Sequence record: OP079919.1
Source: Klebsiella phage KPN8
DNA: 64,000 bases
Strand: one strand, 5' to 3'
The notes beneath the pieces were generated by a model. That model did not search any database and was not told where the DNA came from. It was given only the letters and a program-made list of their open reading frames with translations. The translations under genes were made by a program, and so were the position numbers. Of the stretch, positions 4,163 to 31,791 are shown in pieces (the first letter of the stretch is position 1; each line of letters begins with the position of its first letter).

Positions 4163-5870
4163 TACCAGCACCACATCGACCACATCAAGTACGAGTGTTG
4201 CGGCGACGGGTCCTCAGTTACCTAACTCGAATGATCTACTCACCCCACTCGATATTTCCAACCTTTACGATCCGGATACGGTAGCTGATTCTGATGCGTC
4301 AAAATACATCGTTGGTCGTGAAGGCCAAACGGTCATAGACGGATTGAACCAACGAGCTTACGTCATTACTCACGTTGGGACTGAAGATGCGAAATACAAA
4401 TCAACGTTAAAACGGATAGGGTTTGTTACGGATAGCGACGACAACTCGAGTGACATCATTGGTTTACCGGGACGCTTTGCCGGCAATGGTGTTTTGGGAA
4501 TCGACTACAGTGTCAGACCTCCTCGGGCTGTCATCGATGGTCGTGTATGGGCTCCTGATGCAGCCTACGGTTTGCTTTATAAAGGCGTGGTTATCGGTGA
4601 TAGCGGTCAGGTCATTTCTGTTCAATACGCAACTAATGGTGATTTGATTTCTAATCAGGTCCCGACTAAATTAGCTGCGGTTAACAACATGACCAACCAC
4701 AGCATCTTCACCACTACTGCATTTTCGGTGACTCAAACGGCTGACGAACTCCCGGACGGAAGTTTGTGTACGCTGGTGTTCTTCGATGCTGCCGGTAACA
4801 TGATTCCTGAACCTTATGAACTTGGCGTGATGCACACTGCGTTGCTGAGAGATCATCAGATCGGGATCAAGTATGTTTCGGCTATTGAACTGGTCTCTCC
4901 TTGGTTCACCGATACGACCGATCCTACTACGCTGAACATTCCTATCAACGTTGCGATGAGTTCGGTTCAATTCTCTGCGCGCATCCATTATAACGATGGG
5001 TCTACCAAAGAGCAATTGATTGACGGGACCAAATGTGCGATCATCGGGCTCAATGAATATAAACCTACTACGGTGGGTCAGCGAGCTTCGATCGTACTTC
5101 GTTATTCGTTCGATGAGGACGAACAGGCTTTAATTGCTACGCCTAATTATCCCGACATGATCACCCAGGCTTATCAGATCGTTTGTACTCAGGTTAACGG
5201 CGCCTACTCTCCAAAACTCTACACTTATCCGGTGTGGAACGGAACAGGGTATTCGCTCAAACATTACCTGTACGATCTTACCCGTGGGTATGCGACTGAC
5301 GTTACTCAGCATGTTACACTCAACGACACGTCGCCAGCCTTCCAGCCGGCTAACTATGGCGTTCAGCAAGACATGGTGTTTAACCTGACGCTGTCAGACG
5401 TATCTTCGACGTTTAAAGCATGGACGCTGGTACAACATACTTCTATTACGTTGTATAAAGCGAATACCGGCACGGGTCGTCGTTGGGCTATTCAGTACTC
5501 TTCTGCGAATAATCCTTACGTCGCTTATAACGTCGGGTATACCGAAGCCAATGGTGTTCAGTCCATTAACCTGGCTGGTTCCATCCTCACGATTTCTGAT
5601 TGGTTGAATCGACTCTACTATCCGGTAGAACCATTGATCGATACCACGAAAGAATCGGCGGCTCTGGTTCCTAACTATATCCGGTTGGTTGACACTAACG
5701 GGGTTACTCACGACCTTGAAATCAACGATTGGAATAAACCTCAAGCTCTCACTTCTCCTGTTGCAAGTGGCCAAACCCTCTTCCTGCAATGGATTCAGAA
5801 ATCAGAGAACGGGGCCGAACTCCAATTGGCGACCACGGGTGTTGTTGTAGACGTCGCTCCGAGCAATTAA
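4155..5870 (+). CDS. hypothetical protein (571 aa), Ser/Thr-rich N-terminus
   Basis: ATGTTTGA start overlaps the previous stop. SD GAGGTAAATAATA. N-terminus is MFDTSTTSTTSSTSVAATG. Confidence 0.7.
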   Translation: MFDTSTTSTTSSTSVAATGPQLPNSNDLLTPLDISNLYDPDTVADSDASKYIVGREGQTVIDGLNQRAYVITHVGTEDAKYKSTLKRIGFVTDSDDNSSDIIGLPGRFAGNGVLGIDYSVRPPRAVIDGRVWAPDAAYGLLYKGVVIGDSGQVISVQYATNGDLISNQVPTKLAAVNNMTNHSIFTTTAFSVTQTADELPDGSLCTLVFFDAAGNMIPEPYELGVMHTALLRDHQIGIKYVSAIELVSPWFTDTTDPTTLNIPINVAMSSVQFSARIHYNDGSTKEQLIDGTKCAIIGLNEYKPTTVGQRASIVLRYSFDEDEQALIATPNYPDMITQAYQIVCTQVNGAYSPKLYTYPVWNGTGYSLKHYLYDLTRGYATDVTQHVTLNDTSPAFQPANYGVQQDMVFNLTLSDVSSTFKAWTLVQHTSITLYKANTGTGRRWAIQYSSANNPYVAYNVGYTEANGVQSINLAGSILTISDWLNRLYYPVEPLIDTTKESAALVPNYIRLVDTNGVTHDLEINDWNKPQALTSPVASGQTLFLQWIQKSENGAELQLATTGVVVDVAPSN

Positions 5871-5882
5871 GATTCGTTATCC

Positions 5883-5918
5883 TAACTACCGGTCTGAAAA
5901 GACCGGTAGTTATATTTT
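5883..5918 (+). terminator. intrinsic terminator hairpin
   Basis: TAACTACCGGTC-TGAAAA-GACCGGTAGTTA is a perfect 12-bp stem, followed by TATATTTTAT. Confidence 0.7.
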
Positions 5919-5953
5919 ATATCGAGACCGAGACAAACCGACAGGATAAAACC

Positions 5954-8900
5954 ATGTTTGCAAGTAAAGACGAATTAGAACTACATCTTGCAAGAGAAAA
6001 ACTTGCTATGATAGGAGCGACAGAAAGTCAGCTCCCCGAATACCTGCTCGATGACGACACAGAAGCGCTTCCCATCAGGACCCCAGAAGAATTGCTTCTA
6101 GCCCATTATCGAGAAGACACATTAAGTGCGATCAAAACGGTCAGGTTCTTAAAGGACTTCGAACGTTATAACGCTAAACCGGATCTGACGACGAAGAACA
6201 TCTCTTTCTTAAAGGTTGCTGAAATCTTTAGACTGATGGGGATAAAGAATTACTATTTCTGCCTCCAGCTCAACAATCCGTTGCTGATAGGGGTAGATCC
6301 TTACGACCCCAACCTGACAGATGAACAAAAATTCATGATCCTCCAGGAGTGCCGTGAAAACTTCTGGTATTTCCTCCGTGAAGTACTTCATCTGAGCGGT
6401 GGTATTCAGTTCCAGGCAAACAGAGCAAACATCTGTTTCTTATGGTGTTATTTGTGCCACGTCAACACCATGCTTATCATTCCCCGCCAATTCGGGAAAA
6501 ATTCTAGATTAGATTCTCTTGTAAAAATACCCAACGGTTGGAAGAAAATGGGGGATATGCGCAAGGGTGACGTAGTATCCACTCCTGATGGTAAAACGGC
6601 TAAAGTTACCGGGGTTTATCCTCAAGGTGTCACTCCTTTATATAAGGTTACTTTTAAAGATGGAAGAGAATCTTACGTCGGGTCTGATCATTATTGGACG
6701 GTATGGGATCCCGGTAAGGGTGATGGCGGGGTCTGGCGAACACTGACCACACTCGAGTGCCAACAACGCATGACCGAGATGAAGAAAGCGCATAACTATC
6801 TTTCTGTTCCTTTGGTTCAGCCTGATAATGATCCAGATAAGAAACTTGCCATTCATCCTTATGTTCTAGGTGTTTTACTAGGTGACGGATGCATCTCTAA
6901 TAAAAGCGTTGTTGTAGCTAAACCAGATAAAGAGATGTTCGATAAGGTTACAGGGCTCATCCCTGAGTCACTAGAAACCTCATGGGTTGATGATAAGAGC
7001 TTTATCATCAGACGTAAGCCGACTAACATAACCCAGAACAATCAACTTAAAGATGATTTAACCAATCTCGATTTATTCGGATTGCGGTCCTGGGAGAAAT
7101 TTGTTCCTACCGATTACTTAAATGGTTCTTATCGCCAGCGTTTAGAGTTGCTACAGGGTTTACTTGATACTGATGGACACGCAGGTACGGGTGGGAACAT
7201 TGAGTATTGCACGACGTCTCCTAAACTCGCTAAAGATTTCGTTTACCTTGCTCGTAGCATCGGGGCAATATGTTCTTGTAAAGAACGCCACACGTATTAC
7301 ACGCATAATGGCGAGAGACGCCAGGGGAGATTATCTTATCGCATTAGTGTTCGACACACACAGCCTTGGGAACTCTTCACGTTAAGTCGTAAACGAGATC
7401 GTTTAGTTGACAAAACACGAGGGTTAAAATTTAACAGCCGTTTAACCATGCGTTCCATTGAGTATGTGGGGGAAGAAGAGACTCAGTGCATTGAAGTGGA
7501 CCATCCTGATCATCTTTACATCATGGATGATTTCGTCGTCACTCACAACACTGTTTCTGCCCAGAGCATTATGTTCTGGCTAACTTACTTAACCGGGAAG
7601 TCTTACGAATCCCACTTAATCACCCTGAAAGACGATAACCGTAGTCAGTTCGTAGAGGCGTTAAAGGGTATCCGTAACAACATCCCGAGTTACTTAACCA
7701 ACGTGGGGTGGCGAGATAAGGATAGCGGTAACTCATTAACCTATAGCGCGTTTGGGGATGATAAGAAAAACATCTTCCGTATTAGTGTACCTCAAATCGG
7801 TAGAGAGGCGGCTCGTAACGTCGGTCGTGGTTTGACTATCAAAACGCGTATGATTGACGAACCGGCATATATCAACTTCATGGAAGAGATACTTAACGGT
7901 GCGGGCCCTAGTACACTAACGGCTCGTGCTAACGCCAGAAGAATAGGTGAACCCTATGGGACGGGATTCATTACCACGCCTGCGAGTAAAACGACGGCAA
8001 GCGGCGAATACATGTACAACATGTTGATGGATGCGACCGAGTGGCGGGAAACGTTCTTCGACAGTTTTAACGAAAGTCATCTCTACCAACGTTTGATTAA
8101 AGCAAGTCCTGTGGAGGGAATCACCAGTCCTACCGTAGGCATGGTTTTCAACTACTTGCAGCTGGGTAGGAATAAAGACTGGGTTAAGAAAACCATAGAC
8201 GAGTTAAAACTCAGTTTAGCCGAAGCGAAGATCGACTTACTGTTAATGTGGGACGACGCCAGTAAAGGTAAACTTTTCGACGACTTAACTCGAGAAGCGT
8301 TAAACGAGGGTAAACGAGGAATACTCTGGAGTCAGGAAGTAGGGAGTACGGGGTTGTTCATCGACTGGTTTATTACGCCAGAAGAACACACCCAAATCAT
8401 TACTGGGAATAGTCAAACCTTTTACGTAGTCGGTTGTGATACTTCCGCTGCGCAAAACCGAGACGCCTGTACTGTCGTGATAAGAGACGTCATGGACGGT
8501 AAAGTGATTGGGGTGGGTCGTTATCCGATAGCCTACTTAATGGACGTGGGCGAGGTACTACAAACGATCCTGTTAGAGATTAAGAACAGCTTACTGATCA
8601 TCGAGCGTAACTTCGCGCATCACATGATCGACCAACTGCTCGTTAGTCTTCCTGCATTAGGCATCGATCCCTTTAAACGTATCTTTAATCAGATCGTACA
8701 GGATCCGGTTAAATACGAAAAAGAAATGATCGAGTTTAAACAACGTAATTTCGCTAACAGAGACAGTCACTTCTATCTGAGATTCAAACATTTGTTTGGG
8801 TTCGTTACCAACGCCAAAACGCGTGACGAAGTATATAGTTTTATCCAAGAAGCGGTAGGGACTACCGGAGATAAAATTTACTATACTAAACTCATCGACG

Positions 8901-9352
8901 AACTGGTCAACCTCAAAGAGAAAGGGGGAAGGATAGACCACGAAGCCAATAAACACGATGACCTGGTTATCGCTTGGTTGTTAGGATTCTGGTTCTTGAA
9001 ACTGGGTAACAATAAAAGCGAATACGGAATTCCTCCAGGTATTAGTTTGAGTAAAATCAGCTTGATGCGTGTTGGGGACGATAAAAATGAGGAAACCAAC
9101 AGTGCGCACAATGAAGCGATGATCGCACTCTATCGTCGTAAAGTTGAAGAGCTGAGTGACAGACTCATTAAAACCACCGACAATACCGTAGCTCAAAGGA
9201 TCGAGTACATGATTGACAAACTCAGCAGCATGATCCCTCAAGATAAGCGTAAGAGTTTGACCATCGATGAAATCGTTAGAAAGGCCAAGGAGGAAAGAAG
9301 TCGTCGAGTATTGGAAGCGCGTAAGTTACGCAGTCGTTACGCGTACATGTAA
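5954..9352 (+). CDS. terL: terminase large subunit (ATPase + nuclease), interrupted by an in-frame intein
   Basis: P-loop IIPRQFGKN aligns to T4 gp17 SRQLGKT. A Walker-B-like MIDEPAYI follows, then FITTPASK (TTP coupling motif), then the nuclease-domain-like FYVVGCDTSAAQNRDACTVVIRD. The ORF track starts at an earlier ATG (5789) that reads through the upstream terminator, so the ATG at 5954 (MFASKDEL) is preferred. Spliced length is ~783 aa. Confidence 0.8.
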   Translation: MFASKDELELHLAREKLAMIGATESQLPEYLLDDDTEALPIRTPEELLLAHYREDTLSAIKTVRFLKDFERYNAKPDLTTKNISFLKVAEIFRLMGIKNYYFCLQLNNPLLIGVDPYDPNLTDEQKFMILQECRENFWYFLREVLHLSGGIQFQANRANICFLWCYLCHVNTMLIIPRQFGKNSRLDSLVKIPNGWKKMGDMRKGDVVSTPDGKTAKVTGVYPQGVTPLYKVTFKDGRESYVGSDHYWTVWDPGKGDGGVWRTLTTLECQQRMTEMKKAHNYLSVPLVQPDNDPDKKLAIHPYVLGVLLGDGCISNKSVVVAKPDKEMFDKVTGLIPESLETSWVDDKSFIIRRKPTNITQNNQLKDDLTNLDLFGLRSWEKFVPTDYLNGSYRQRLELLQGLLDTDGHAGTGGNIEYCTTSPKLAKDFVYLARSIGAICSCKERHTYYTHNGERRQGRLSYRISVRHTQPWELFTLSRKRDRLVDKTRGLKFNSRLTMRSIEYVGEEETQCIEVDHPDHLYIMDDFVVTHNTVSAQSIMFWLTYLTGKSYESHLITLKDDNRSQFVEALKGIRNNIPSYLTNVGWRDKDSGNSLTYSAFGDDKKNIFRISVPQIGREAARNVGRGLTIKTRMIDEPAYINFMEEILNGAGPSTLTARANARRIGEPYGTGFITTPASKTTASGEYMYNMLMDATEWRETFFDSFNESHLYQRLIKASPVEGITSPTVGMVFNYLQLGRNKDWVKKTIDELKLSLAEAKIDLLLMWDDASKGKLFDDLTREALNEGKRGILWSQEVGSTGLFIDWFITPEEHTQIITGNSQTFYVVGCDTSAAQNRDACTVVIRDVMDGKVIGVGRYPIAYLMDVGEVLQTILLEIKNSLLIIERNFAHHMIDQLLVSLPALGIDPFKRIFNQIVQDPVKYEKEMIEFKQRNFANRDSHFYLRFKHLFGFVTNAKTRDEVYSFIQEAVGTTGDKIYYTKLIDELVNLKEKGGRIDHEANKHDDLVIAWLLGFWFLKLGNNKSEYGIPPGISLSKISLMRVGDDKNEETNSAHNEAMIALYRRKVEELSDRLIKTTDNTVAQRIEYMIDKLSSMIPQDKRKSLTIDEIVRKAKEERSRRVLEARKLRSRYAYM
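6503..7549 (+). mobile_element. intein (349 aa) with LAGLIDADG homing-endonuclease domain, inserted in the terminase P-loop
   Basis: Block A SRLDSLVKIPNGW aligns to CLAGDTLITLADG. Block B is GSDHYW. Two LAGLIDADG motifs: LGVLLGDGCI and LLQGLLDTDGHAG. C-terminal VVTHN is followed by a +1 Thr. The intein DNA visibly uses TTA/CTA/AGA codons more than the flanking extein. Confidence 0.75.
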
Positions 9353-10350: not shown

Positions 10351-10794
10351 ATGACCGAAGAAGAATTTAACGAGAAAGTAAAGGCTATTGCCGACGAACG
10401 GCAGATACCGGAAGTTTTCGCCGAATACATCGTTATTAGAGAATTTCTTCAATCTGACTCGTCATTCAAAATCGCTGACCATTTAGTCCGCATAGAGGAG
10501 TACGAGTACCGTAATATCAAGATTCCGCCAGAAAGATATGTATTTCGCCCTAGTATTTATGCGGCGGTCTCTGAACCCGCGGCTAACAAAAAAATAATAG
10601 GTTTAAAATTATACATCTTTGATTATTTCCATAATCTCAAACCGGGGTTAGTCTTTGCCTCTAACGAAGAGGAAGCGGTTAAACTTATCAAAGAACGCGG
10701 GGTAACCGGATTGCCAGACAGGTTTTATTCCACGGTTAAAGAAATAGAAATTCCTACTCACTCAACTTACGTTCGTTACGCTACCGGAGAATAA
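10351..10794 (+). CDS. hypothetical protein
   Basis: 147-aa ORF with SD TAGGAAC. Confidence 0.55.
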   Translation: MTEEEFNEKVKAIADERQIPEVFAEYIVIREFLQSDSSFKIADHLVRIEEYEYRNIKIPPERYVFRPSIYAAVSEPAANKKIIGLKLYIFDYFHNLKPGLVFASNEEEAVKLIKERGVTGLPDRFYSTVKEIEIPTHSTYVRYATGE

Positions 10795-10796
10795 AA

Positions 10797-11477
10797 ATGG
10801 AAAAGAAAAAAGAACCATCTTTATCTGAATCAGACTTACCTAAAAATAAGCTAGAAACCCCATTTGATCTTGTCGACAACTATCAAGAAAATAAAAAGGG
10901 GATCGTTGTTATTGTCACGCCCAATGAACAACTCCCTAAAGATGCTCAGGGTCGGACCCCTGACTTACGGTCGGACAGTTCTCCTGCTTTTAGAAGAGAA
11001 GATCTTTTTAAAGCAATGCAAGACGTCGATCTGGAAGAAACATATCCGGGTACTCGTAAAACAAATCCTGAGTTATACCGGTCTTCGCCTTATCCAACTC
11101 CCGAAAACAAGAATATCTTAAACGAAGTAACAGGTGGGATGAAGCGAGGAGAACTGAACTACCTTTCTGCTGAAACTGACCCTGAAAAATCTATCTTCCA
11201 TCCTAAAACTAATAGAGGATCGAGAACGTTATTGCGCGTTACCGATAAATGGTTCTTCTATCGCGTACATCAATTCCACGACGTTCATCACAAACGTCGT
11301 AAAGCGCGTTTCGATAAAATCACCTTCATGTTACTTCGACACAGTTGGGTCGAATACAAAGAATCGCTTCATAAGAAGAAATATCATATCTTCGATAAGA
11401 CCCCTCGGGCCAAGGCTGAACGTTTAGCACTTAAACGTTCCAGAGAAAAGATTAAACCAACTTTGATGATTAGTTGA
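10797..11477 (+). CDS. hypothetical basic protein
   Basis: SD GGAGA 6 nt upstream. Lys/Arg-rich C-terminal half. Confidence 0.6.
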   Translation: MEKKKEPSLSESDLPKNKLETPFDLVDNYQENKKGIVVIVTPNEQLPKDAQGRTPDLRSDSSPAFRREDLFKAMQDVDLEETYPGTRKTNPELYRSSPYPTPENKNILNEVTGGMKRGELNYLSAETDPEKSIFHPKTNRGSRTLLRVTDKWFFYRVHQFHDVHHKRRKARFDKITFMLLRHSWVEYKESLHKKKYHIFDKTPRAKAERLALKRSREKIKPTLMIS

Positions 11478-19346: not shown

Positions 19347-20309
19347 ATGAGCACATTACGTGTTTACGCGTGCGGCGGTACCGGTATTAATATTGCGTCT
19401 AAATGGATTGCCACCGGTGCGAATACGCTTATTCGTAAAGCCCAGTTCATTGGACTGGATAGCAGTGAAAACAACAAACCGTATAACGACGCCTTTAAGG
19501 TCGAACGTCCTGAAGGAACTCGTGGCGGTGGCAAAGAACGTAAGCTGATCGGTAAAATCGCTGCTGGGTTTATTGACAGTATTTTGACCAAACATAAACC
19601 GGGCGATTTCAACCTGATCATCATGAACGCGGCTGGCGCTACCGGGAGTACGTTCGGCCCGACTCTGATCAACCGTCTCCTCACCCAGGGCGTTCCGGTC
19701 ATTGCGTTGGTCGTAGGTGACCTGACTTCTGAACTGGAAAACTACAACACGGTTAAAACGTTTGAAAGCCTGGACAACCAGCGCATCAATCTGAACGTGC
19801 CGGTTATCATCGACTACGTGGACAACGCCAAATATCCCAGCCGTGGATTGGCCGACAAATATGCCATCGGCCGTCTTGATATCCTGAGCCTGTTCTTAAC
19901 CGACGAACACGAAGAAAGCGATTTCCAAGACATCCGGAACCTGTTCTATTACAACCAGGTTACCAAGGCGGCGCCTACTCTTGCTCGTATCGACTTCTTG
20001 ACCGATACTCAGTTAGACAACGTTACTCCGGGGCTGGTTGCTGAATTTGGTTTGTATCGTAAAGCGGACGATATCGGTAGCCATATTAAAAATCTGGCAT
20101 ACCGTTCGACCGGCGTTATTCAGGAAGGTAGCACTAACTTCCCGGCTGGAATAGAACATCTCCACATGGTCTTTGACCACGATGCGACGATTAAAGATAT
20201 CTTGGTTCTGGTCCAGGATCTTAAAGATATTGAGATCCAAAATAACGAACGTTTTAAATCCGCTCAGCAGGTTGGAAACGGCGGCGATGATTCTGGAATG
20301 TCCTACTAA
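19347..20309 (+). CDS. phuZ: PhuZ-like phage tubulin/FtsZ-family GTPase
   Basis: YACGGTGINIASK, EGTRGGGKERK, NAAGATGSTFGPTLINRL and NVPVIIDYVDN match PhuZ/tubulin GTP-binding loops as I recall them. 320 aa with an acidic C-terminal tail. Strong SD TAGGAG. Confidence 0.75.
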   Translation: MSTLRVYACGGTGINIASKWIATGANTLIRKAQFIGLDSSENNKPYNDAFKVERPEGTRGGGKERKLIGKIAAGFIDSILTKHKPGDFNLIIMNAAGATGSTFGPTLINRLLTQGVPVIALVVGDLTSELENYNTVKTFESLDNQRINLNVPVIIDYVDNAKYPSRGLADKYAIGRLDILSLFLTDEHEESDFQDIRNLFYYNQVTKAAPTLARIDFLTDTQLDNVTPGLVAEFGLYRKADDIGSHIKNLAYRSTGVIQEGSTNFPAGIEHLHMVFDHDATIKDILVLVQDLKDIEIQNNERFKSAQQVGNGGDDSGMSY

Positions 20310-23114: not shown

Positions 23115-25199
23115 ATGACTGAGACTTTTTTAAGTCCGTTTGTTGATGACGATTACAGTGCCGATAGGAATATCGTTAAACACTATCATGAACAAATGGC
23201 TTTGTATCTTGGTAAAAAGCGCAATGAAGATCCTAAAGCTATTTACGAAGTACTTTCTAAACACATCCAGCCCAATCAAAACGGCTATAAAGATCGTCGT
23301 ATGCAGGTTTTAGTAAAAAACAAGTACGGCGATAGAGAAGTTAAAGTCATGACGGCATCTAATTTCTTTAATGAAGTTAGACGTCAGAACTGTCATCTCA
23401 GTCCCAGTATGGTTGCTTACAAGAACACTGAAGAAGAGCAATCCGTTAATGCAATCGGGACAGAAAAATTTCTTAGCCTTCGGTCCCACTATAAAGGGTT
23501 AAAACAAAAGGCCAGTGACGAAGGTGATGAATGGGGTAAGAAGGCTTTCCACGAAATTCAAAACGCCTTGAAAATATTCAACAACGCCCAATCAGGCGCA
23601 ATGTCATCCCGTGGGACTCCTCTTGTTAATAAGTCAGGTCATACTGCTCTGACTAGTGCTTGCCGTGCTTTGACCAGTACCGCTAACATGTGTAATGAAA
23701 AGTTATTGGTCGGTAACCGATTCTTTAACTCGTACGAGCGAACGATGGAGAACTTACTGTCGTTGCTCTCAGTTACTGACATTAAGCGAATGGACGAAGT
23801 CATCAAGAAACTGAAGATGAACTACGCGACCATAGACCAGGTTATGGAAATGGTCAAACGTTGTTCTCGTCGGTATTGGAGAGACGTTAAACAACTCGGC
23901 TACATTAAAGAGTTTTTGGAGCAACTTCGTCCGGTTGAATTAACGGCTTTGCTTTGCAATATGGATATCGAGGGATTGAGGGTTACGAATAAAGAAATCC
24001 TTTATAAATTCTTTGATGACTTCTCTCATATACCGGAAGTTCCAGAAGGCGCTAAGGCTGAAGATTATACTCCGCCTGATAACGGAGACCGATACACGCT
24101 TTGTGTGTCTAAACTCTTAGCGAAACCAAGCAAAGTTCAGTTAAACTTTTTAAACCAGTATCATCTGGAAATGGAACATAAGTGGAAAGACTTTATTGAA
24201 GTCTTCTTTAAATGCTCCATTCCTCCATCGGGCATTTATGAAATCAGGGATATGATCCGAGAGGTAGTTCAAACCTCAGATACCGATTCCTCGATTTACA
24301 CCGTAGATAAAGTCGTAGAGGATTACACCGACGAAAAAGGACAATCGTTGAGATTGAATGGGGTTCTTACTTACTTCATTCGAATGATAGCGGTTCATCA
24401 GCACGCTCAGTTAAGTGAAAACATGAACGTTGCTAAACGCTACCGTAATCGTCTGACGATGAAGAACGAGTACTTGTTTGGAGGATATGTTACAACATTA
24501 ATGTCAAAACACTATTTTGCCACACAGCTGATGGTAGAAGGGGTATTGAATAAAAATGTTGAAATGGAAATTAAGGGTGTTCACTTAAGGAGTTCTAAAG
24601 TAGCTCATGAGATAAAGGATTTTGCACACAAACTCATGAGGGAGATATTGGATTGTATCTATGACAAACGTCAGATGGATGCAGCCGATATTCTCTTTAG
24701 AGCAGCAGAGTTAGAAAGGGCCATCATTAAGGATATCAACGAAGGCCAATGGGGTTGGCTAACACGCAACACGATAAAGAGTGACGACGTGTACACATTG
24801 CCGGATCAATCAGTGTATCAATACCACTTACTCTGGGAGGAAGTGTTCTCCCCTAAATACGGACACGCTCCACCACCACCCTATTCTGCTATGAAAGTTA
24901 ACCTTGATTTAGGTAATAAAGGTAAGGTCGAAGAGTTTTGTAAGAATCTGGAAGATAGAGAACTTGCAAATCGTTTATTAGATTTCTTCGTTAAGAAAGA
25001 GAAAAAAGAAATCAGTACGTTCTTTGTTCCTGCTGACGTATTACCAAGATTAGGCAAGTTACCCGATGAAGTTATTAAAGCCGCGGATATCCGACAGATC
25101 ATTAAACAGAACTTAAAATCCGTTTATGCTGTGTTGGAAGCCTGTGGGCTGTATATTGTTAACGATAAAATAACGCGTTTAATTAGTGACGAACACTAA
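23115..25199 (+). CDS. hypothetical large protein (694 aa)
   Basis: SD GGAG 8 nt before the ATG at 23115 (MTETFLSPF). The upstream 23097 ATG lacks an SD. No motif recognised. Confidence 0.65.
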   Translation: MTETFLSPFVDDDYSADRNIVKHYHEQMALYLGKKRNEDPKAIYEVLSKHIQPNQNGYKDRRMQVLVKNKYGDREVKVMTASNFFNEVRRQNCHLSPSMVAYKNTEEEQSVNAIGTEKFLSLRSHYKGLKQKASDEGDEWGKKAFHEIQNALKIFNNAQSGAMSSRGTPLVNKSGHTALTSACRALTSTANMCNEKLLVGNRFFNSYERTMENLLSLLSVTDIKRMDEVIKKLKMNYATIDQVMEMVKRCSRRYWRDVKQLGYIKEFLEQLRPVELTALLCNMDIEGLRVTNKEILYKFFDDFSHIPEVPEGAKAEDYTPPDNGDRYTLCVSKLLAKPSKVQLNFLNQYHLEMEHKWKDFIEVFFKCSIPPSGIYEIRDMIREVVQTSDTDSSIYTVDKVVEDYTDEKGQSLRLNGVLTYFIRMIAVHQHAQLSENMNVAKRYRNRLTMKNEYLFGGYVTTLMSKHYFATQLMVEGVLNKNVEMEIKGVHLRSSKVAHEIKDFAHKLMREILDCIYDKRQMDAADILFRAAELERAIIKDINEGQWGWLTRNTIKSDDVYTLPDQSVYQYHLLWEEVFSPKYGHAPPPPYSAMKVNLDLGNKGKVEEFCKNLEDRELANRLLDFFVKKEKKEISTFFVPADVLPRLGKLPDEVIKAADIRQIIKQNLKSVYAVLEACGLYIVNDKITRLISDEH

Positions 25200-25206
25200 G
25201 CAGTAA

Positions 25207-25238
25207 ATACTTTCGCTCCTTTACGGGAGCGAGAGTAT
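25207..25238. terminator. bidirectional hairpin between convergent genes
   Basis: ATACTTTCGCTCC-TTTACG-GGAGCGAGAGTAT is a 13-bp stem with one G-U pair. Confidence 0.55.
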
Positions 25239-25244
25239 TAGCGG

Positions 25245-26357
25245 TTACCGAGATAATTTATTTTGTTTTAACATGGCGGTGACTTGTTCTAAGTATTGTA
25301 CTTGTAACGGCCCCGGAATGAAATGTTTAATCATCCCTTTAATATCTTGCTTGGACCAAACATCGATATGACCATTCACCGTCCCCATTGCGTTGAAGCT
25401 TTTATTATTGAGTGCCAAACTAAGCGTCAATAACTTCATTATTGGGAATTGCCAAATGGCGTTTGTTTGACTATATCGATTGTATCTCTTCGCATCTACA
25501 ATGAGAGGGTTGACATCCATCGTCATAAAGTCGCCTATTCTCTGTATGACGTGTTCAGGAGAATAGCTCGGTGTTAGCGTTAAAGTCTCGACCAAGAAGG
25601 TTAAGAATCCTTTGAGTAGTTCACCCACTGGATTGATATTGAACTCCCCCTTGACTACCGTTAATTGGTCGTCGATGTTCTCACCGTTAACTACGACGTT
25701 ATAGAGCGAATTGAATACACTCAATTGATGCTGCAAACACCTTGCGTTGATTAGAGGAGTGCCGGCTAAATAACGATGAGGATCTAATCCAGTTTCTGAT
25801 CCTTCAGCTAACCGTTCGTTAAGGTAACGCCAATACCCTATACCCAAAGCCGTGATATCCACCCCTATTACTGCAAACCCGCCATAATTCATCGGATCGT
25901 TTTTGAGAGAAGTGGTATTAGTGTAACGGATGTCCGTCTCGGTGCTAATCAGCGGGATGATGCTGCAAATGTCTCTTTCGTCTAAATCGAAATAATCATC
26001 GAGATTATCTTTAGCCGGATAAGAGACCAACATTTCAGTCAACCCATTCGCGTACATCACGTTTTGTTTTACGACACCTTTATTGTATATAGACGTGATT
26101 CCGATAGTCGACGCCCAACTATCTACTTGCATCTCGATCATTGCTTTAAGGTAGGTGGGATCCCATTCAGGTTGAATGTTCATTAATGAAAGTAACTGAA
26201 CCAAAGGATGTTGGTTCTGTAAAACGTAGGTGGTATTGTCGTTCCGTGCGATCCACTGATTACGATTAAAATCCAAGATACGTATTACATTACTGAGCCT
26301 ACCATATTTATAGACGGCAGGACGATGATCGGTTGTTATTAATTTTAAAGGTTTCAT
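25245..26357 (-). CDS. hypothetical protein (370 aa)
   Basis: SD AGGA upstream of the ATG at 26357. Confidence 0.65.
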   Translation of the reverse strand: MKPLKLITTDHRPAVYKYGRLSNVIRILDFNRNQWIARNDNTTYVLQNQHPLVQLLSLMNIQPEWDPTYLKAMIEMQVDSWASTIGITSIYNKGVVKQNVMYANGLTEMLVSYPAKDNLDDYFDLDERDICSIIPLISTETDIRYTNTTSLKNDPMNYGGFAVIGVDITALGIGYWRYLNERLAEGSETGLDPHRYLAGTPLINARCLQHQLSVFNSLYNVVVNGENIDDQLTVVKGEFNINPVGELLKGFLTFLVETLTLTPSYSPEHVIQRIGDFMTMDVNPLIVDAKRYNRYSQTNAIWQFPIMKLLTLSLALNNKSFNAMGTVNGHIDVWSKQDIKGMIKHFIPGPLQVQYLEQVTAMLKQNKLSR

Positions 26358-26615: not shown

Positions 26616-28628
26616 ATGTCCGACAATCAAAATGGCAACAACTGGGAACAAACCGTCCTGAACACCGCTGCTGGTAAAGGAGAGCCGATCGTCTCTGCTT
26701 CTGCCGAGAATTTCGGTTCTCAGCTGCTCGGTCTGCTCGGCCAGGCTTCTCTTCTGGGTTCTTCCAAGAACGTGCCGGAAGTAGAAGAAACCGCGGCTCT
26801 GATCAAGAAACGCGTAACCGATCTGAAAAACGGTACGCCGGGCGAAACCCAGAAGAAGATCCTGCCGGAAGTGAACATCATCACCAAACCGATCATCTCT
26901 GCACTGCCGGGCATCGTCCTCTCCCTGCACATGAACAACAACCCTGCGGTATACGTCATGCCGGTGCTGTTCTCTAACCGTCATCTGACCAATACCCTGG
27001 AAGAGATCCAGATCGACAACGGCGTTAACCAACAGCGCAAAATGTCCATGCCGTTTACCCCGGATTCCTACGCTCGTGCTGATCTGTTCGAACAGATCAA
27101 AATGCACTACAAAGCGATGCTCCAGGATAAAGGTGTGAGCGAATGCGTGATCATCAACGTGATGGTTATCGACCTGGAACAGATCGTTGGTGACGATGTC
27201 CTGAATCAGGGCAAATCGCCGCTGCTGCGTGATGAAATCATGCGTAGCTGGGAACAGGGTCTGATGGTACAGATCGCGAAAATCGCAGCCAACCAGCCGA
27301 AAGCTTCTCTGCCTTCTCCGTTCTCTGCGACCGGTGGCAAAGCCTATGGTCAGCACGGTAATGCGATTGCTCGCGTTGAACCGATCCGCGGTCAGTATGT
27401 TAACGAAGGTCTGCTGTCTCCGGCGAACCTGACCATCCGCATGCAAACTGCTAACCACAACGGTTATCAGGGTAATGCTGAGCAGTCCCGCGAAATCGTC
27501 AACACCTACGCGACCGTTAGCCTGATGGGTTCTCCGATCCAACAGTTCAACCCGCAGCTGACCGGTAACATTCCGCAGCCGTACCTGCAGACCCCTAACG
27601 GTCGTCCTCAGGGCTACACCCCGCTGCAGCCGGTGGTTATTATGAACCACGCTAAAGCTGGCGAAGTGCTGGGCGATGCGACTGGCCTGTCGACCTACTT
27701 CATGGGTCTGTTCTCTCTGATGGCGACCAACAGCAACTACCTGTTTGCTGAAGCTCTGCGTTCTAAGAACGTAGGTTCTCGTGGCTCCCTGACTGATATG
27801 GAACACCGCATCCGTCAGATGGAAAATGGATTACCTCCGCGCACTAAGGGTACTGAGATGACCGACGCTAAACTGTCGGATATCGATTTCACCACTAACT
27901 GGATTCGCGCCAATATTGGACCTAAAGCAGTCTTTGCTGCTGACCTGATCCAGTTCGGCCCGGATGCGGCGATCTCCAACTTCCTGTTCAACCTCACCTC
28001 CGGTGCGAAAGACTACAGCAAATGCGTGAAAACCGTTATTGCTATCGTCGATTCCATCTCCGGTGATGCGAAAGCCATGTCTGCGGTTATCGCAGAAAAC
28101 CAGGCCAACAACAATGGTAACGGCGGATGGATTCCAGGTAAACCGGTACTGCACGTTTCTAACGCGCTGATCCCGGTCGGTACTGCTGTACTGGATAACA
28201 AACGCATTGCGCTCGGCGAAGTGGACGAGATGTTCCTGTCCAAGCACTACAAAGATCAGATCACCCCGATGAACCAGTACCTGGAAAACATGTACGGGTC
28301 TAACCCGAACGTGCCGGAAAAACTGCGTCGCTATAACCTGCTCATCCAGCTGTCCACCATCTTCTCTGAAGGTGTAAACCTGTTCGGCTTCGCTCGTCGT
28401 TGCTACTGGGATCCGCTGTTCATGGATGCGTTCACTAAAGCGATGAACACCATCGGTTCTCTGCAGGTTACTGGCTCTATGGGTCAGTTCGCTGCTAACG
28501 TTCAAGTCTTCGCTCCTGGCCAGCAGTATATCTCTCAGGCAACTGCTGGTAACTCCGGTGGCGTCGTTCTGGGTAACGGTATGATGCTGGGTGCAGGTGG
28601 CGGTCTGGTGTTTGGCCCGTCCTACTAA
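26616..28628 (+). CDS. putative major capsid protein (670 aa, highly expressed)
   Basis: Codon usage is very strongly biased (CTG, CGT, GGT, ACC). Strong SD TAGGAG, a long 5' leader and a dedicated terminator. The size fits jumbo-phage capsid proteins. No sequence motif was recognised, so the capsid assignment is an inference. Confidence 0.5.
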   Translation: MSDNQNGNNWEQTVLNTAAGKGEPIVSASAENFGSQLLGLLGQASLLGSSKNVPEVEETAALIKKRVTDLKNGTPGETQKKILPEVNIITKPIISALPGIVLSLHMNNNPAVYVMPVLFSNRHLTNTLEEIQIDNGVNQQRKMSMPFTPDSYARADLFEQIKMHYKAMLQDKGVSECVIINVMVIDLEQIVGDDVLNQGKSPLLRDEIMRSWEQGLMVQIAKIAANQPKASLPSPFSATGGKAYGQHGNAIARVEPIRGQYVNEGLLSPANLTIRMQTANHNGYQGNAEQSREIVNTYATVSLMGSPIQQFNPQLTGNIPQPYLQTPNGRPQGYTPLQPVVIMNHAKAGEVLGDATGLSTYFMGLFSLMATNSNYLFAEALRSKNVGSRGSLTDMEHRIRQMENGLPPRTKGTEMTDAKLSDIDFTTNWIRANIGPKAVFAADLIQFGPDAAISNFLFNLTSGAKDYSKCVKTVIAIVDSISGDAKAMSAVIAENQANNNGNGGWIPGKPVLHVSNALIPVGTAVLDNKRIALGEVDEMFLSKHYKDQITPMNQYLENMYGSNPNVPEKLRRYNLLIQLSTIFSEGVNLFGFARRCYWDPLFMDAFTKAMNTIGSLQVTGSMGQFAANVQVFAPGQQYISQATAGNSGGVVLGNGMMLGAGGGLVFGPSY

Positions 28629-28714: not shown

Positions 28715-30319
28715 ATGGATCAGTACGGTGATCGTATTATTGATGCATTAACAGCGCCTGAATTTTCATCATTGCAACCAGAGGCTCAGTTTAAAACTTA
28801 TGCCGAACAATACGGTGGTGACCTTTCTGACGACAAACGTTTTTATGAACCCCTTTATCCCGACTTCACTGACTATAACCGTTTGCATGATACTGCTAAG
28901 GTCGATCCGGTTTACCTGAACGATTTCGATTTTTGTTTGGAAGAAGACCGAGAACGAATCGCATCTTTGATTCGTATGGACTTCAACACCGACACATTCG
29001 AAACCGTCGCGAGATGTAGTTGTGGGCATTTGAAGGGCAACTATTTATTGGGTCAGAAAAGATCATGTCCCATCTGTCAATCCCTTGTAGAGAAAGTCGT
29101 AGAGACTTCCTTAGATACTAAGGTATGGGTCAGGGTTCCAGAAGGTGTAGTTGGATTTATCAGCCCGGCTTATTACAAAACCTTCTTATCGAAGATCGCG
29201 ACCAATTCTCCAAAGATTGAGATCGTGACTTGGCTCATCGATCCGTCTTATCGTCGGGGAAGCCGAGCTCAGCATACTGAGTCCGGTCGTCGGATGTTGG
29301 CTGAACTCGATAAACTCGGAATAGTGCCCGGGCTTAACAGCTTTATATTGAACGCGGACAGATTCATGGAACACTTCCTTGTTGGTGAAGGAAGAGGTGC
29401 CGTGAGCATGAAGCCGGCTGATGGTAAAAAGCATTTGGATAAGTATTACGAATATCGTCATCTTATCTTCCCGCGCTATTTGTCCGTACCCAATAAACTC
29501 GCCACCATCATCGAGCAAGATGGTAAAGATAAGTACGTTTCTTCAACCCAATTGAAAACCTCGGCAATCTACCAATCTATTGCGGATACGAGGGATTCTA
29601 CTGAGTTTTATAAATGTACGATTAAGGACCTTAAAGAGAACGCTGATATCGTCGGGAAGGCAATAGTTCGATTAGGTAAGCAGAACTCTGATAACTATAA
29701 GAGTCAGCTGTTTGCTAAATCGAGCCTGATACGTAAACACGTAATCGCGGGATCGTTATCTTTATCAGGTCGTGGTGTTATCACGTCAACTACCGGATTG
29801 CATGACGCCGGTGTTGCTAAGATACCTTGGATCATGGCAGTGGCTATGCTGAAGAAACACATCCTGGGATATCTTTACCGTTTAGGGTACAGTCCCCTGA
29901 AAGCTGAAAGTGTAATCAGTACAGCAGCGCACCAAGTCGTCCCGGTTATCGATCAATTCTTTACCAAGCACGAAAAGCAAAAAGACATTGTCTGCATTTT
30001 AGGAAGAAACCCATCAATTCAGTACCTGTCAGCAAAAGCCTTCTTTATGTCGATCAACCGAGATTTAGAAGACGAGTCGATAAACTTACCGATACTCTCG
30101 GTTAAAACCTTTAATGCTGACTTCGATGGCGATACGATGTATTGCTACGTCCTCAGCGATTTGAAAGGCAAAGCCAAAGCGTATGGGTCGTTCGGTCATC
30201 AGTCCATGCTCGATGAAAACGAACCATTTACAATAAGTCGATTTGCTGATCAAACTTCAACGAATTTGATGAACCTCAACAACATGATGAGAGGAACACC
30301 AATCAATGAATGCGGCTGA
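28715..30319 (+). CDS. multisubunit RNA polymerase beta-prime-like subunit, N-terminal fragment
   Basis: Zinc-binding CSCGHLKG...CPICQ near the N-terminus, and the universal catalytic loop NADFDGDTM. SD GGAG 7 nt before the ATG at 28715. The ORF track's 28700 start is GTG. Confidence 0.8.
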   Translation: MDQYGDRIIDALTAPEFSSLQPEAQFKTYAEQYGGDLSDDKRFYEPLYPDFTDYNRLHDTAKVDPVYLNDFDFCLEEDRERIASLIRMDFNTDTFETVARCSCGHLKGNYLLGQKRSCPICQSLVEKVVETSLDTKVWVRVPEGVVGFISPAYYKTFLSKIATNSPKIEIVTWLIDPSYRRGSRAQHTESGRRMLAELDKLGIVPGLNSFILNADRFMEHFLVGEGRGAVSMKPADGKKHLDKYYEYRHLIFPRYLSVPNKLATIIEQDGKDKYVSSTQLKTSAIYQSIADTRDSTEFYKCTIKDLKENADIVGKAIVRLGKQNSDNYKSQLFAKSSLIRKHVIAGSLSLSGRGVITSTTGLHDAGVAKIPWIMAVAMLKKHILGYLYRLGYSPLKAESVISTAAHQVVPVIDQFFTKHEKQKDIVCILGRNPSIQYLSAKAFFMSINRDLEDESINLPILSVKTFNADFDGDTMYCYVLSDLKGKAKAYGSFGHQSMLDENEPFTISRFADQTSTNLMNLNNMMRGTPINECG

Positions 30320-31731: not shown

Positions 31732-31760
31732 ATACATCGATATTATCATGGTGTATAAAC
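31732..31760 (+). promoter_or_regulatory. conserved promoter-like motif TACATCGATATTATCATGGTGTATAAAC (copy 2 of 2)
   Basis: See 9366-9385. The core ATTATCATGGTGTA is identical, and the spacing to the downstream ATG is the same (~36 nt). Confidence 0.35.
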
Positions 31761-31791
31761 AAATGAATATTTTATTTATAAGGAATCTATT

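Follow-up and report, generated by a model that had tools for sequence, protein, structure and literature searches.

A probable class 3 intein with a nested LAGLIDADG endonuclease in the Walker A loop of the large terminase of Klebsiella phage KPN8

We analyzed the gene for the large terminase subunit (TerL) in a 64,000-nucleotide stretch of the genome of Klebsiella phage KPN8 (sequence record OP079919.1), referred to here as the window. The gene is interrupted within its Walker A loop by an in-frame insert that is very probably a class 3 intein carrying a nested two-motif LAGLIDADG homing endonuclease, with a splicing chemistry that we infer from related elements. Class 3 inteins are defined by a triplet of Trp, Cys and Thr (WCT) together with a missing N-terminal nucleophile (Tori et al. 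2010, PMC2807308; Kelley et al. 2016, PMC5050341). A sequence-only reading of this DNA had proposed an in-frame Hint and LAGLIDADG insertion in the terminase P-loop, which is borne out by Pfam, by phmmer searches of the PDB, by PHROG families, by the predicted fold, and by a clean gap in alignments; the first residue and the spliced product given there have to be revised.

Boundaries of the insert

A single long open reading frame (ORF), listed at 5789..9352 on the plus strand, spans the insert region. Its parts are as follows.

5954..9352, plus strand: TerL precursor gene, 1132 residues plus stop, ~130 kDa
5954..6499, plus strand: N-extein, 182 residues ending ...IIPRQFGK, with the Walker A Gly-Lys at 6494-6499; delimited by alignment with intein-less TerLs
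6500..7549, plus strand: predicted class 3 (WCT) intein with an inserted LAGLIDADG endonuclease, 350 residues (Asn1 to Asn350), 40.0 kDa
7550..9349, plus strand: C-extein, 600 residues, the first being Thr+1 (7550-7552)

The boundaries were placed using a 12-sequence TerL alignment. The five intein-less members (Sureiya, AH04, phiKZ-like SL2, Goslar, and Proteus phage 10) read PRQ(S/T)GK^(T/S)V, where the caret marks the insertion point, and all have one clean gap over the insert, none aligning continuously through it; in the seven intein-bearing members the insert begins directly after the Lys and ends in xTHN before a Thr. The element is therefore an in-frame insertion at a conserved site, absent from orthologues. 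At its start the junction DNA reads ...TTCGGGAAA^AATTCT.... In tblastn searches at a strict threshold, matches in intein-bearing homologues restart exactly at query residue 183, which is Thr+1. A filled and an empty site can also be compared directly: the TerL of Klebsiella phage N1M2 without its 360-residue insert is 776 residues long and 98.2% identical to the 776-residue TerL of Serratia phage Sureiya. The Asn1 codon falls within the block in which intein alleles diverge (see below), and the residue is Leu in YC1, phiKp_32, and BUCTxx100.

Judged by these alignments, the insert is Asn1 to Asn350 (6500-7549), between Lys182 and Thr183 of the Walker A loop (RQFGK^T). Because empty-site homologues read GK^[TS], splicing would restore a canonical GKT rather than GKNT, and the predicted peptide across the spliced junction is ...IIPRQFGKTVSAQSIMF.... 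The sequence-only reading had begun the insert at Ser (6503); the span 6503-7549 is in frame and does translate to the 349-residue string it gave (SRLDSLVKIPNGW ... VVTHN), between ...RQFGKN and TVSAQS, but the empty-site alignments put the start one codon earlier, at the Asn of 6500, for a length of 350 residues. The spliced P-loop of GKNT that followed from the later start is contradicted by intein-less homologues, in which nothing separates GK from T or S. The alternative it had flagged, a non-canonical Asn1, proves to be the correct one and is accounted for by class 3 chemistry with its WCT triplet.

Thr+1 doubles as the predicted splice-junction nucleophile and as the Ser/Thr of Walker A (GK-T). 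Every copy of the intein found in the terminase gene is open and without stops. Two small reverse-strand ORFs within the intein, at 6638-6856 and 6859-7041, were set aside as frame shadows of the coding strand.

Splicing motifs and class assignment

The blocks that characterize intein splicing domains can all be located in the insert.

6500..6541, plus strand: block A (NSRLDSLVKIPNGW), with the non-nucleophile Asn at position 1; homologous to the family consensus AQPLDxKIxTPxGW
6680..6697, plus strand: block B (GSDHYW), with His64 (B:10) at 6689-6691 and Trp66 (B:12, the W of WCT) at 6695-6697
7484..7549, plus strand: block F (QCIEVDHPDHLYIMDD) and block G (FVVTHN), located by invariant residues and alignment to PDB entry 6bs8; Cys330 (F:4) at 7487-7489, Thr348 (G:5) at 7541-7543, His349 at 7544-7546, and Asn350 at 7547-7549

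His64, Trp66, Cys330, Thr348, His349, and Asn350 are invariant in all 42 members of the intein family alignment and in 11 of 11 TerL copies. The spacing of the triplet is such that the Trp lies 2 residues past the block B His, and the Cys and Thr lie 20 and 2 residues, respectively, before the terminal Asn. When the insert is aligned by phmmer to the class 3 intein 6bs8, the H, W, C, T, H, and N of that intein pair one-to-one with those of the insert, and L4 (numbered from Asn1) pairs with residue 4 of the 6bs8 chain. Position 1 is N in the window and Miami copies, L in the YC1 group, RisingSun, and AerS_266, and E, Q, A, or D in the remainder of the 11 TerL copies; it is a nucleophile in none. 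As the WCT triplet is complete (B:12, F:4, and G:5) and position 1 is not Cys, Ser, or Thr, we assign the insert to class 3; the +1 residue is Thr, in keeping with a class that has Ser or Thr, rarely Cys, there.

The same arrangement extends to a wider family, taken as the 120 best homologues from a search of 5.8 billion proteins, which reside in PhoH, DnaB, SNF2, and other P-loop ATPases. Among these 120, 78 show the pattern GxxxxGK^X...C...THN^[TS]; the first residue in those 78 is most often Ala (49), then Asn (13) and Ser (6), and at +1 there are 58 with Thr and 20 with Ser. The listed homologues from this search are all of at most 613 residues, and the intein-bearing terminases of more than 1000 residues present in the phage collection are missing among them; the TerL-borne relatives discussed here were taken from that phage collection.

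Hint fold and homing endonuclease

Sequence and structure comparisons both identify a splicing domain and an endonuclease, with matches well above anything that chance would give. In Pfam, LAGLIDADG_3 (PF14528) matches with E = 1.5e-8 and 35.2 bits (cutoff 22.5), and the only other match to either the whole protein or the insert is a sub-threshold one to Hom_end. Of the Hint and LAGLIDADG Pfam matches that the sequence-only reading had suggested looking for, the endonuclease half was thus found and the splicing half was not; because the Pfam Hint models are silent, the Hint assignment is based on phmmer against the PDB, PHROGs, and the fold search. By phmmer, the first ~66 and last ~23 residues align to mini-inteins (6bs8, 6rix, and gp41-1; best E = 1.3e-8). 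PHROG terminase, primase, and helicase families that contain inteins are matched with E-values down to 7e-32, and NCBIfam yields weak sub-threshold matches only, to intein-containing DnaB, GyrA, RecA, and RNR models. An AlphaFold2 model built from the 42-sequence alignment (pLDDT 94.6, pTM 0.92) was compared with the PDB using Foldseek and matches the full-length intein-endonucleases TliVMA (3e-18), PI-SceI (2e-17), and PI-PfuI (4e-12), followed by class 3 mini-inteins (target-normalised TM-score ~0.8) and I-DmoI; endonuclease domains of PI-SceI are matched as well. Blocks A, B, F, and G, the penultimate His, the terminal Asn, and Thr+1 are all present, as expected of a Hint domain.

Nested in the splicing domain lie the endonuclease features.

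6815..7429, plus strand: LAGLIDADG homing-endonuclease domain, ~residues 106-310; limits approximate, from secondary structure of the model
6860-6889, plus strand: LAGLIDADG motif 1, YVLGVLLGDG, with Asp129 at 6884-6886; helix 120-129
7148-7177, plus strand: LAGLIDADG motif 2, LLQGLLDTDG, with Asp225 at 7172-7174; helix 211-225

The two motifs claimed in the sequence-only reading hold up: both fall on predicted helices, each ending in an acidic residue and Gly, and both catalytic Asp residues are kept. Across the 42-sequence family, no variation is seen at G128, G130, K200, D223, D225, or G226, and conservation of D129 is 90% or higher. Other TerL inteins vary in this respect. The Miami group, AerS_266, and N1M2 retain both acidic residues. 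RisingSun, EL-like MIZ-Pa99, and PDCC-1 have other residues at both catalytic Asp positions, and in PDCC-1 the intein is also shortened to 293 residues, with part of the domain gone; D9 has lost only the Asp of motif 1 and keeps D225. Judging from these sequences, such a mix of intact and degenerate endonucleases is the pattern expected of different stages of the homing cycle.

Allele divergence and mobility

Comparison with close relatives indicates that the intein and its host gene have had different histories. Relative to YC1, phiKp_32, and BUCTxx100, the exteins have ~99% amino acid identity and differ at 3.5-5.8% of nucleotides, whereas the intein has ~81% amino acid identity and differs at 23.6% of nucleotides and at 44% of third positions; relative to Miami, the intein is 99.7% identical in amino acids. 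The difference is concentrated in one block.

6496..7390, plus strand: allele-divergence block, ~24% nucleotide difference between the window/Miami allele and the YC1/phiKp_32/BUCTxx100 allele

The left edge of this block (6496-6500) coincides with the insertion junction. The flanking extein and the last ~160 nucleotides of the intein differ by 0-4% between alleles, and islands of low divergence occur inside the block at 6734-6853 and 7094-7273; residues 131-197 of the intein belong to its divergent part. Synonymous divergence (dS) between the window and YC1 reaches 1.18 across the intein, against 0.05-0.22 across the exteins and 0.07 over the final 50 codons of the intein; the ratio of nonsynonymous to synonymous divergence (dN/dS) is 0.13 for the intein and 0.14 for the endonuclease domain. 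In BUCTxx100 there are also 48 clustered N-extein differences from window 6134-6433, ~70-370 nucleotides 5' of the intein, where other relatives have 0-8; to judge from the sequence, the terminase gene of that phage may have undergone a further recombination event here.

Among more distant TerL copies, inteins and exteins do not rank alike in similarity. Outside the group, AerS_266 and N1M2 have the nearest TerL-borne inteins (51% over the Hint part), and the exteins of these phages are among the most distant; conversely, PDCC-1 has the closest extein (62%), yet its intein is only 43% identical. The endonuclease domain is 44% identical to that of a Serratia-phage SF2 helicase intein and 41% to PhoH ones, but at most 39% to those of other TerL inteins. 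Presence is also patchy, with pTD1 and VP4B lacking an intein that Aphrodite1 and USC-1 have, and Sureiya and Yubaba lacking one that N1M2 has. By these sequence comparisons the intein has a history separate from that of its host gene.

Base composition is less telling. GC content is 0.434 in the intein and 0.448 in the extein, and GC content at third codon positions (GC3) is 0.394 and 0.515, respectively (summed codon chi-square p = 4e-5); genes of the window range in GC3 from 0.36 to 0.64 (mean 0.476, sd 0.061), a range that includes the intein. The sequence-only reading had described the intein codons as visibly different, citing TTA, CTA, and AGA and AT-richness, and had taken this as a sign of horizontal acquisition. 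TTA and CTA are indeed enriched, CTG is depleted, and GC3 is lower, but AGA is not enriched (5/23 against 12/49), overall GC is nearly equal, and the GC3 value is within the range of the genes. The separate history is supported by divergence and incongruence while the codon-usage argument for it is weak; as far as sequence comparison can tell, allele divergence and the incongruence of intein and extein are much the stronger evidence of mobility.

Points against the assignment and alternative explanations

Several points weigh against our interpretation. Splicing, the role of Cys330, and cleavage by the endonuclease are all matters that we infer via homology, and the Pfam Hint and intein splicing models found no match to the whole protein or to the insert. 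Ser2 is present in all five Miami-group copies, and a Ser-initiated reaction leaving GKNT or GKLT would be compatible with the sequence; as an N-terminal Ser or Cys occurs in 3 of 37 WCT inteins (Tori et al. 2010, PMC2807308), the triplet alone is no proof of which nucleophile is used. Finally, the divergent block has a sharp right edge (~7390) that lies inside the intein, which simple homing into an empty site does not explain and for which we therefore invoke later recombination.

One may postulate a scenario in which the intein is competent to splice but its endonuclease is inactive, so that the element represents a late stage of the homing cycle and is passed on by vertical inheritance or passive general recombination. 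All six closest relatives carry the intein, with no empty target known in the immediate lineage, catalytic Asp residues have been lost in PDCC-1, MIZ-Pa99, RisingSun (both), and D9 (motif 1 only), and the right edge of divergence inside the intein fits ordinary recombination. We nevertheless consider this scenario unlikely for the window copy, which keeps the Asp of each LAGLIDADG motif and all remaining endonuclease residues that are invariant in the family; the alleles have also diverged under purifying selection (dN/dS 0.14 at dS ~1.2), the left edge of divergence is the insertion site itself, and the distribution among subclades is patchy.

A second alternative is that the element is a class 1 intein of 349 residues beginning at the Ser of 6503, whose hydroxyl would carry out the first N-O acyl shift and leave a mature P-loop of GKNT. 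Inteins with Ser1 exist, a small number of those with WCT begin with Ser or Cys (PMC2807308), and a Ser follows the first residue in every Miami-group copy. Outside that group, however, the six remaining TerL inteins have Gln or Leu at this position, the family consensus (AQPL) has Gln, and F:4 is Cys rather than the Asp usual for class 1 (PMC2807308). The residue that would be left behind is Asn in two phages and Leu in three, despite exteins that are otherwise 99% identical, and it falls inside the divergence block, as would be expected of intein rather than extein; intein-less homologues have GKT or GKS with no residue between the Lys and the Thr/Ser. In P-loop NTPases, moreover, the hydroxyl that coordinates Mg2+ would be moved out of place if a residue were added to separate the Walker A Lys from the Ser/Thr, which counts further against a class 1 reaction. 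Taken together with an Asn at position 1, these features make class 1 splicing very improbable. Still harder to credit is a permanent, non-splicing terminase domain derived from a Hint/endonuclease element, or a class 2 (KlbA-type) intein whose +1 residue attacks the N-terminal junction: bacterial intein-like and domesticated Hint domains do exist and class 2 inteins likewise have no N-terminal nucleophile (PMC2807308), but the former would leave Walker A split between Lys and Thr in an essential ATPase in which His64, Cys330, His349, Asn350, and Thr+1 are all invariant, and the latter uses Cys+1 without WCT (PMC2807308), whereas the window intein has Thr+1 and the full triplet.

The terminase gene and its phage

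Translation likely starts at the ATG of 5954 and not at the first in-frame ATG (5789), as judged from the sequence, because a terminator-like hairpin intervenes between the two.

5883..5912, plus strand: terminator-like hairpin with a 13-bp stem followed by a T-run, between the structural gene and the terminase start

The upstream virion structural gene ends at 5870, AGGA stands ~10 nucleotides 5' of the ATG at 5954, and the annotation of phage Miami has a terminator and a ribosome-binding site at the matching place. From the precursor of 130 kDa, splicing would yield a TerL of 782 residues (90.0 kDa calculated) and the 40.0-kDa intein.

The identity of the host protein is based on PHROGs and on annotated homologues, as Pfam and PDB sequence searches with the extein, alone or spliced, returned zero matches. 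The spliced extein matches phrog_2, 'terminase large subunit', with E = 6.8e-43, and it has 314 homologues in phage genomes, many of them annotated as TerL and including those of phiKZ-like phages and Goslar, to which it is 31-34% identical. The protein has an N-terminal ATPase with a Walker A motif, which in its restored form is RQFGKT. At the DNA level, the gene is 96% identical to that of Klebsiella phage Miami and 89-91% identical to those of YC1, phiKp_32, and BUCTxx100; the phage itself also has ~96% identity to Miami.

The region of Miami that is collinear with the window encodes the nuclear shell protein (chimallin) and PhuZ. Window ORFs 26616-28628 and 19347-20309 are the counterparts of Miami 'nuclear shell protein' (chimallin) and 'tubulin PhuZ'; the chimallin ORF has a GC3 of 0.635, the maximum in the window. 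As chimallin and PhuZ genes are present, we regard the source phage as a nucleus-forming jumbo phage, a group of which TerL is a core gene (PMC10299810).

Public names for the intein-bearing terminase are inconsistent and include 'hypothetical protein'. It is called 'DarB-like antirestriction' in RefSeq Miami, PDCC-1, N1M2, and PS1, 'gyrA: DNA gyrase subunit A' in ZPAH34, and 'putative ATP-dependent DNA helicase' in EL and RisingSun. These names were probably caused by the intein drawing matches to other intein-containing proteins.

Proposed mechanism

Under the class 3 assignment, and by analogy with the DnaB intein of mycobacteriophage Bethlehem and M. smegmatis DnaB intein 1, we propose the following sequence of events. 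The 130-kDa precursor would be unable to bind ATP because its P-loop is split. Cys330 (F:4), placed with His64 and Trp66, would attack the peptide bond between Lys182 (-1) and Asn1 to give a thioester-branched intermediate, from which the N-extein would be transferred to the hydroxyl of Thr+1. Cyclisation of Asn350 with help from His349 would then free the 40-kDa intein, and an O-to-N acyl shift would produce the 90-kDa terminase with an intact GKT P-loop. With Walker A interrupted in an essential protein, every viable phage would have to splice.

The endonuclease, free or embedded, would be expected to cut intein-less terminase alleles across GGxAAA^ACxGT during co-infection, the presumed target at an intein-less junction being CCCCGCCAATTCGGGAAA^ACTGTTTCTGCCCAGAGC, and repair from the intein-bearing copy would then spread the element (homing). 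The existence of alleles that are 81% identical inside terminases that are ~99% identical may reflect ongoing competition or replacement between alleles of different endonuclease specificity. Redox or temperature sensitivity has been reported for other class 3 inteins. It is conceivable, since the P-loop is split and a single internal cysteine (Cys330) would be the sole initiating nucleophile, that splicing serves as a conditional switch responsive to redox state or temperature, delaying activation of the packaging ATPase in a nucleus-forming phage until the enzyme has reached its proper compartment or state, but we regard both such a role and the allele competition as rather remote prospects.

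Other differences between the window and phage Miami

Several differences from Miami lie outside the terminase gene. At window 28715-30319 there is an uninterrupted gene with the RNA-polymerase beta-prime catalytic motif NADFDGD (~30110-30130); in Miami (L020 31854-33274) an unannotated insertion of 1.4 kb breaks the same gene directly behind NADFDG. The inserted DNA matches the Rfam group I intron model RF00028 with 42.9 bits and E = 3.7e-9, under the gathering score of 50, and holds an unannotated ORF of 328 residues (L020 32243-33229), possibly a homing endonuclease. A 1.27-kb Miami block (L020 34889-36156) with the 'transposase' gene gp287 is absent at window 31746-31765, and gp279 (hypothetical, a homologue of phage EL gp165; ~1 kb, L020 25920-26978) is absent at window 25199-25251. 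Lastly, window 10369-11236 (868 bp) has no blastn match to its 1511-bp Miami counterpart (L020 10431-11941, gp253 to gp255) and appears to be a replaced cassette just 3' of the thymidylate kinase gene.

Implications

The principles known for inteins are unchanged by this analysis and the kind of element is well known; what is added is a corrected boundary and a corrected, proposed mechanism. The gene model can now be fixed, with a predicted mature terminase of 782 residues, a canonical GKT P-loop, and an intein at 6500-7549. The WCT/class 3 family, best studied in actinobacteria and their phages, is widespread in the terminases of Gram-negative nucleus-forming jumbo phages and moves among the GK^T sites of unrelated P-loop ATPases (TerL, PhoH, DnaB, and SNF2), which is consistent with a proposed phage origin of class 3 inteins. 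The divergent allele pair in near-identical exteins also illustrates cleanly, in natural phages, that an intein can evolve separately from the gene in which it resides.

Comparison with known inteins

Inteins that separate Lys from Thr in Walker A occupy the site called 'classic' for P-loop inteins, found in mycobacteriophage terminases (Kelley et al. 2016, PMC5050341), and the view in the sequence-only reading that terminase P-loops are a known intein hot spot agrees with that work. Class 3 inteins are common in actinophage terminases, and inteins have been recorded in terminases of PaBG-group jumbo phages (Evseev et al. 2020, PMC7412058) and in Rak2 and K64-1. For the present clade, the GenBank record of YC1 reads 'terminase large subunit @ intein-containing', and among the papers searched on its terminase intein we found passing mentions only, with neither a class 3 assignment nor the Asn1 boundary.

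The class 3 prototype, the Bethlehem DnaB intein (MP-Be DnaB; PMC2807308), shares with the window intein the WCT residues at B:12, F:4, and G:5, their Trp following the block B His by two residues and their Cys preceding the terminal Asn by 20-21. Both inteins also have Thr+1, contain a LAGLIDADG endonuclease, and reside in a P-loop ATPase of a phage. The first residue of the Bethlehem DnaB intein is Pro1 where that of the window intein is Asn1, both being non-nucleophilic; it differs further in residing in a DnaB helicase, in its low sequence similarity, and in having been tested by experiment, whereas the window intein is known from sequence. The Bethlehem TerL intein belongs to the same broad family and is only 23-29% identical to the window intein. 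The 'classic' P-loop inteins TerL1-a of mycobacteriophages (PMC5050341) share the exact site, between the invariant Walker A Lys and the nucleophilic Thr of a large terminase, but their hosts are actinophage terminases of the Pfam Terminase_1 family from phages of Gram-positive hosts, while the jumbo-phage TerL matches no Pfam terminase model.

The best sequence match with a solved structure is M. smegmatis DnaB intein 1 (6bs8; E = 1.3e-8), which aligns through all four splicing blocks and has a target-normalised TM-score of ~0.8; being a mini-intein, it has no endonuclease, and it resides in a bacterial helicase at another insertion site. PI-SceI, TliVMA, and PI-PfuI share the two-domain Hint and LAGLIDADG fold (TM-score 0.6-0.7) but are class 1 inteins with a Cys1 nucleophile, 13-18% identity, and archaeal or yeast V-ATPase and RNR hosts.

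Phage genomes and metagenomes also contain P-loop inteins in PhoH, DnaB, SNF2, and SF2-helicase proteins. These are 35-44% identical over their full length, with the pattern GxxxxGK^A...THN^T/S and an invariant WCT; they differ in their host proteins and in mostly having Ala (AQPL...) in place of Asn as the first residue. In Pseudomonas phage PA1C (L018 2012-5166), a related class 3 intein lies at the GTGK^ site of an SNF2 helicase. The reading frame breaks within that intein in this record, where the gene is given as two overlapping coding sequences; the intein may be frameshifted or decaying, or the break may be a sequencing error.

The TerL inteins of related jumbo phages (Miami, YC1, Aphrodite1, EL, RisingSun, N1M2, and Aeromonas PS1/D9) occupy the same GK^T site with the same WCT residues. 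Within this set the YC1-group allele differs from that of the window in being 81% identical, and the PDCC-1, EL-like, RisingSun, and D9 copies differ in having degenerate endonucleases.

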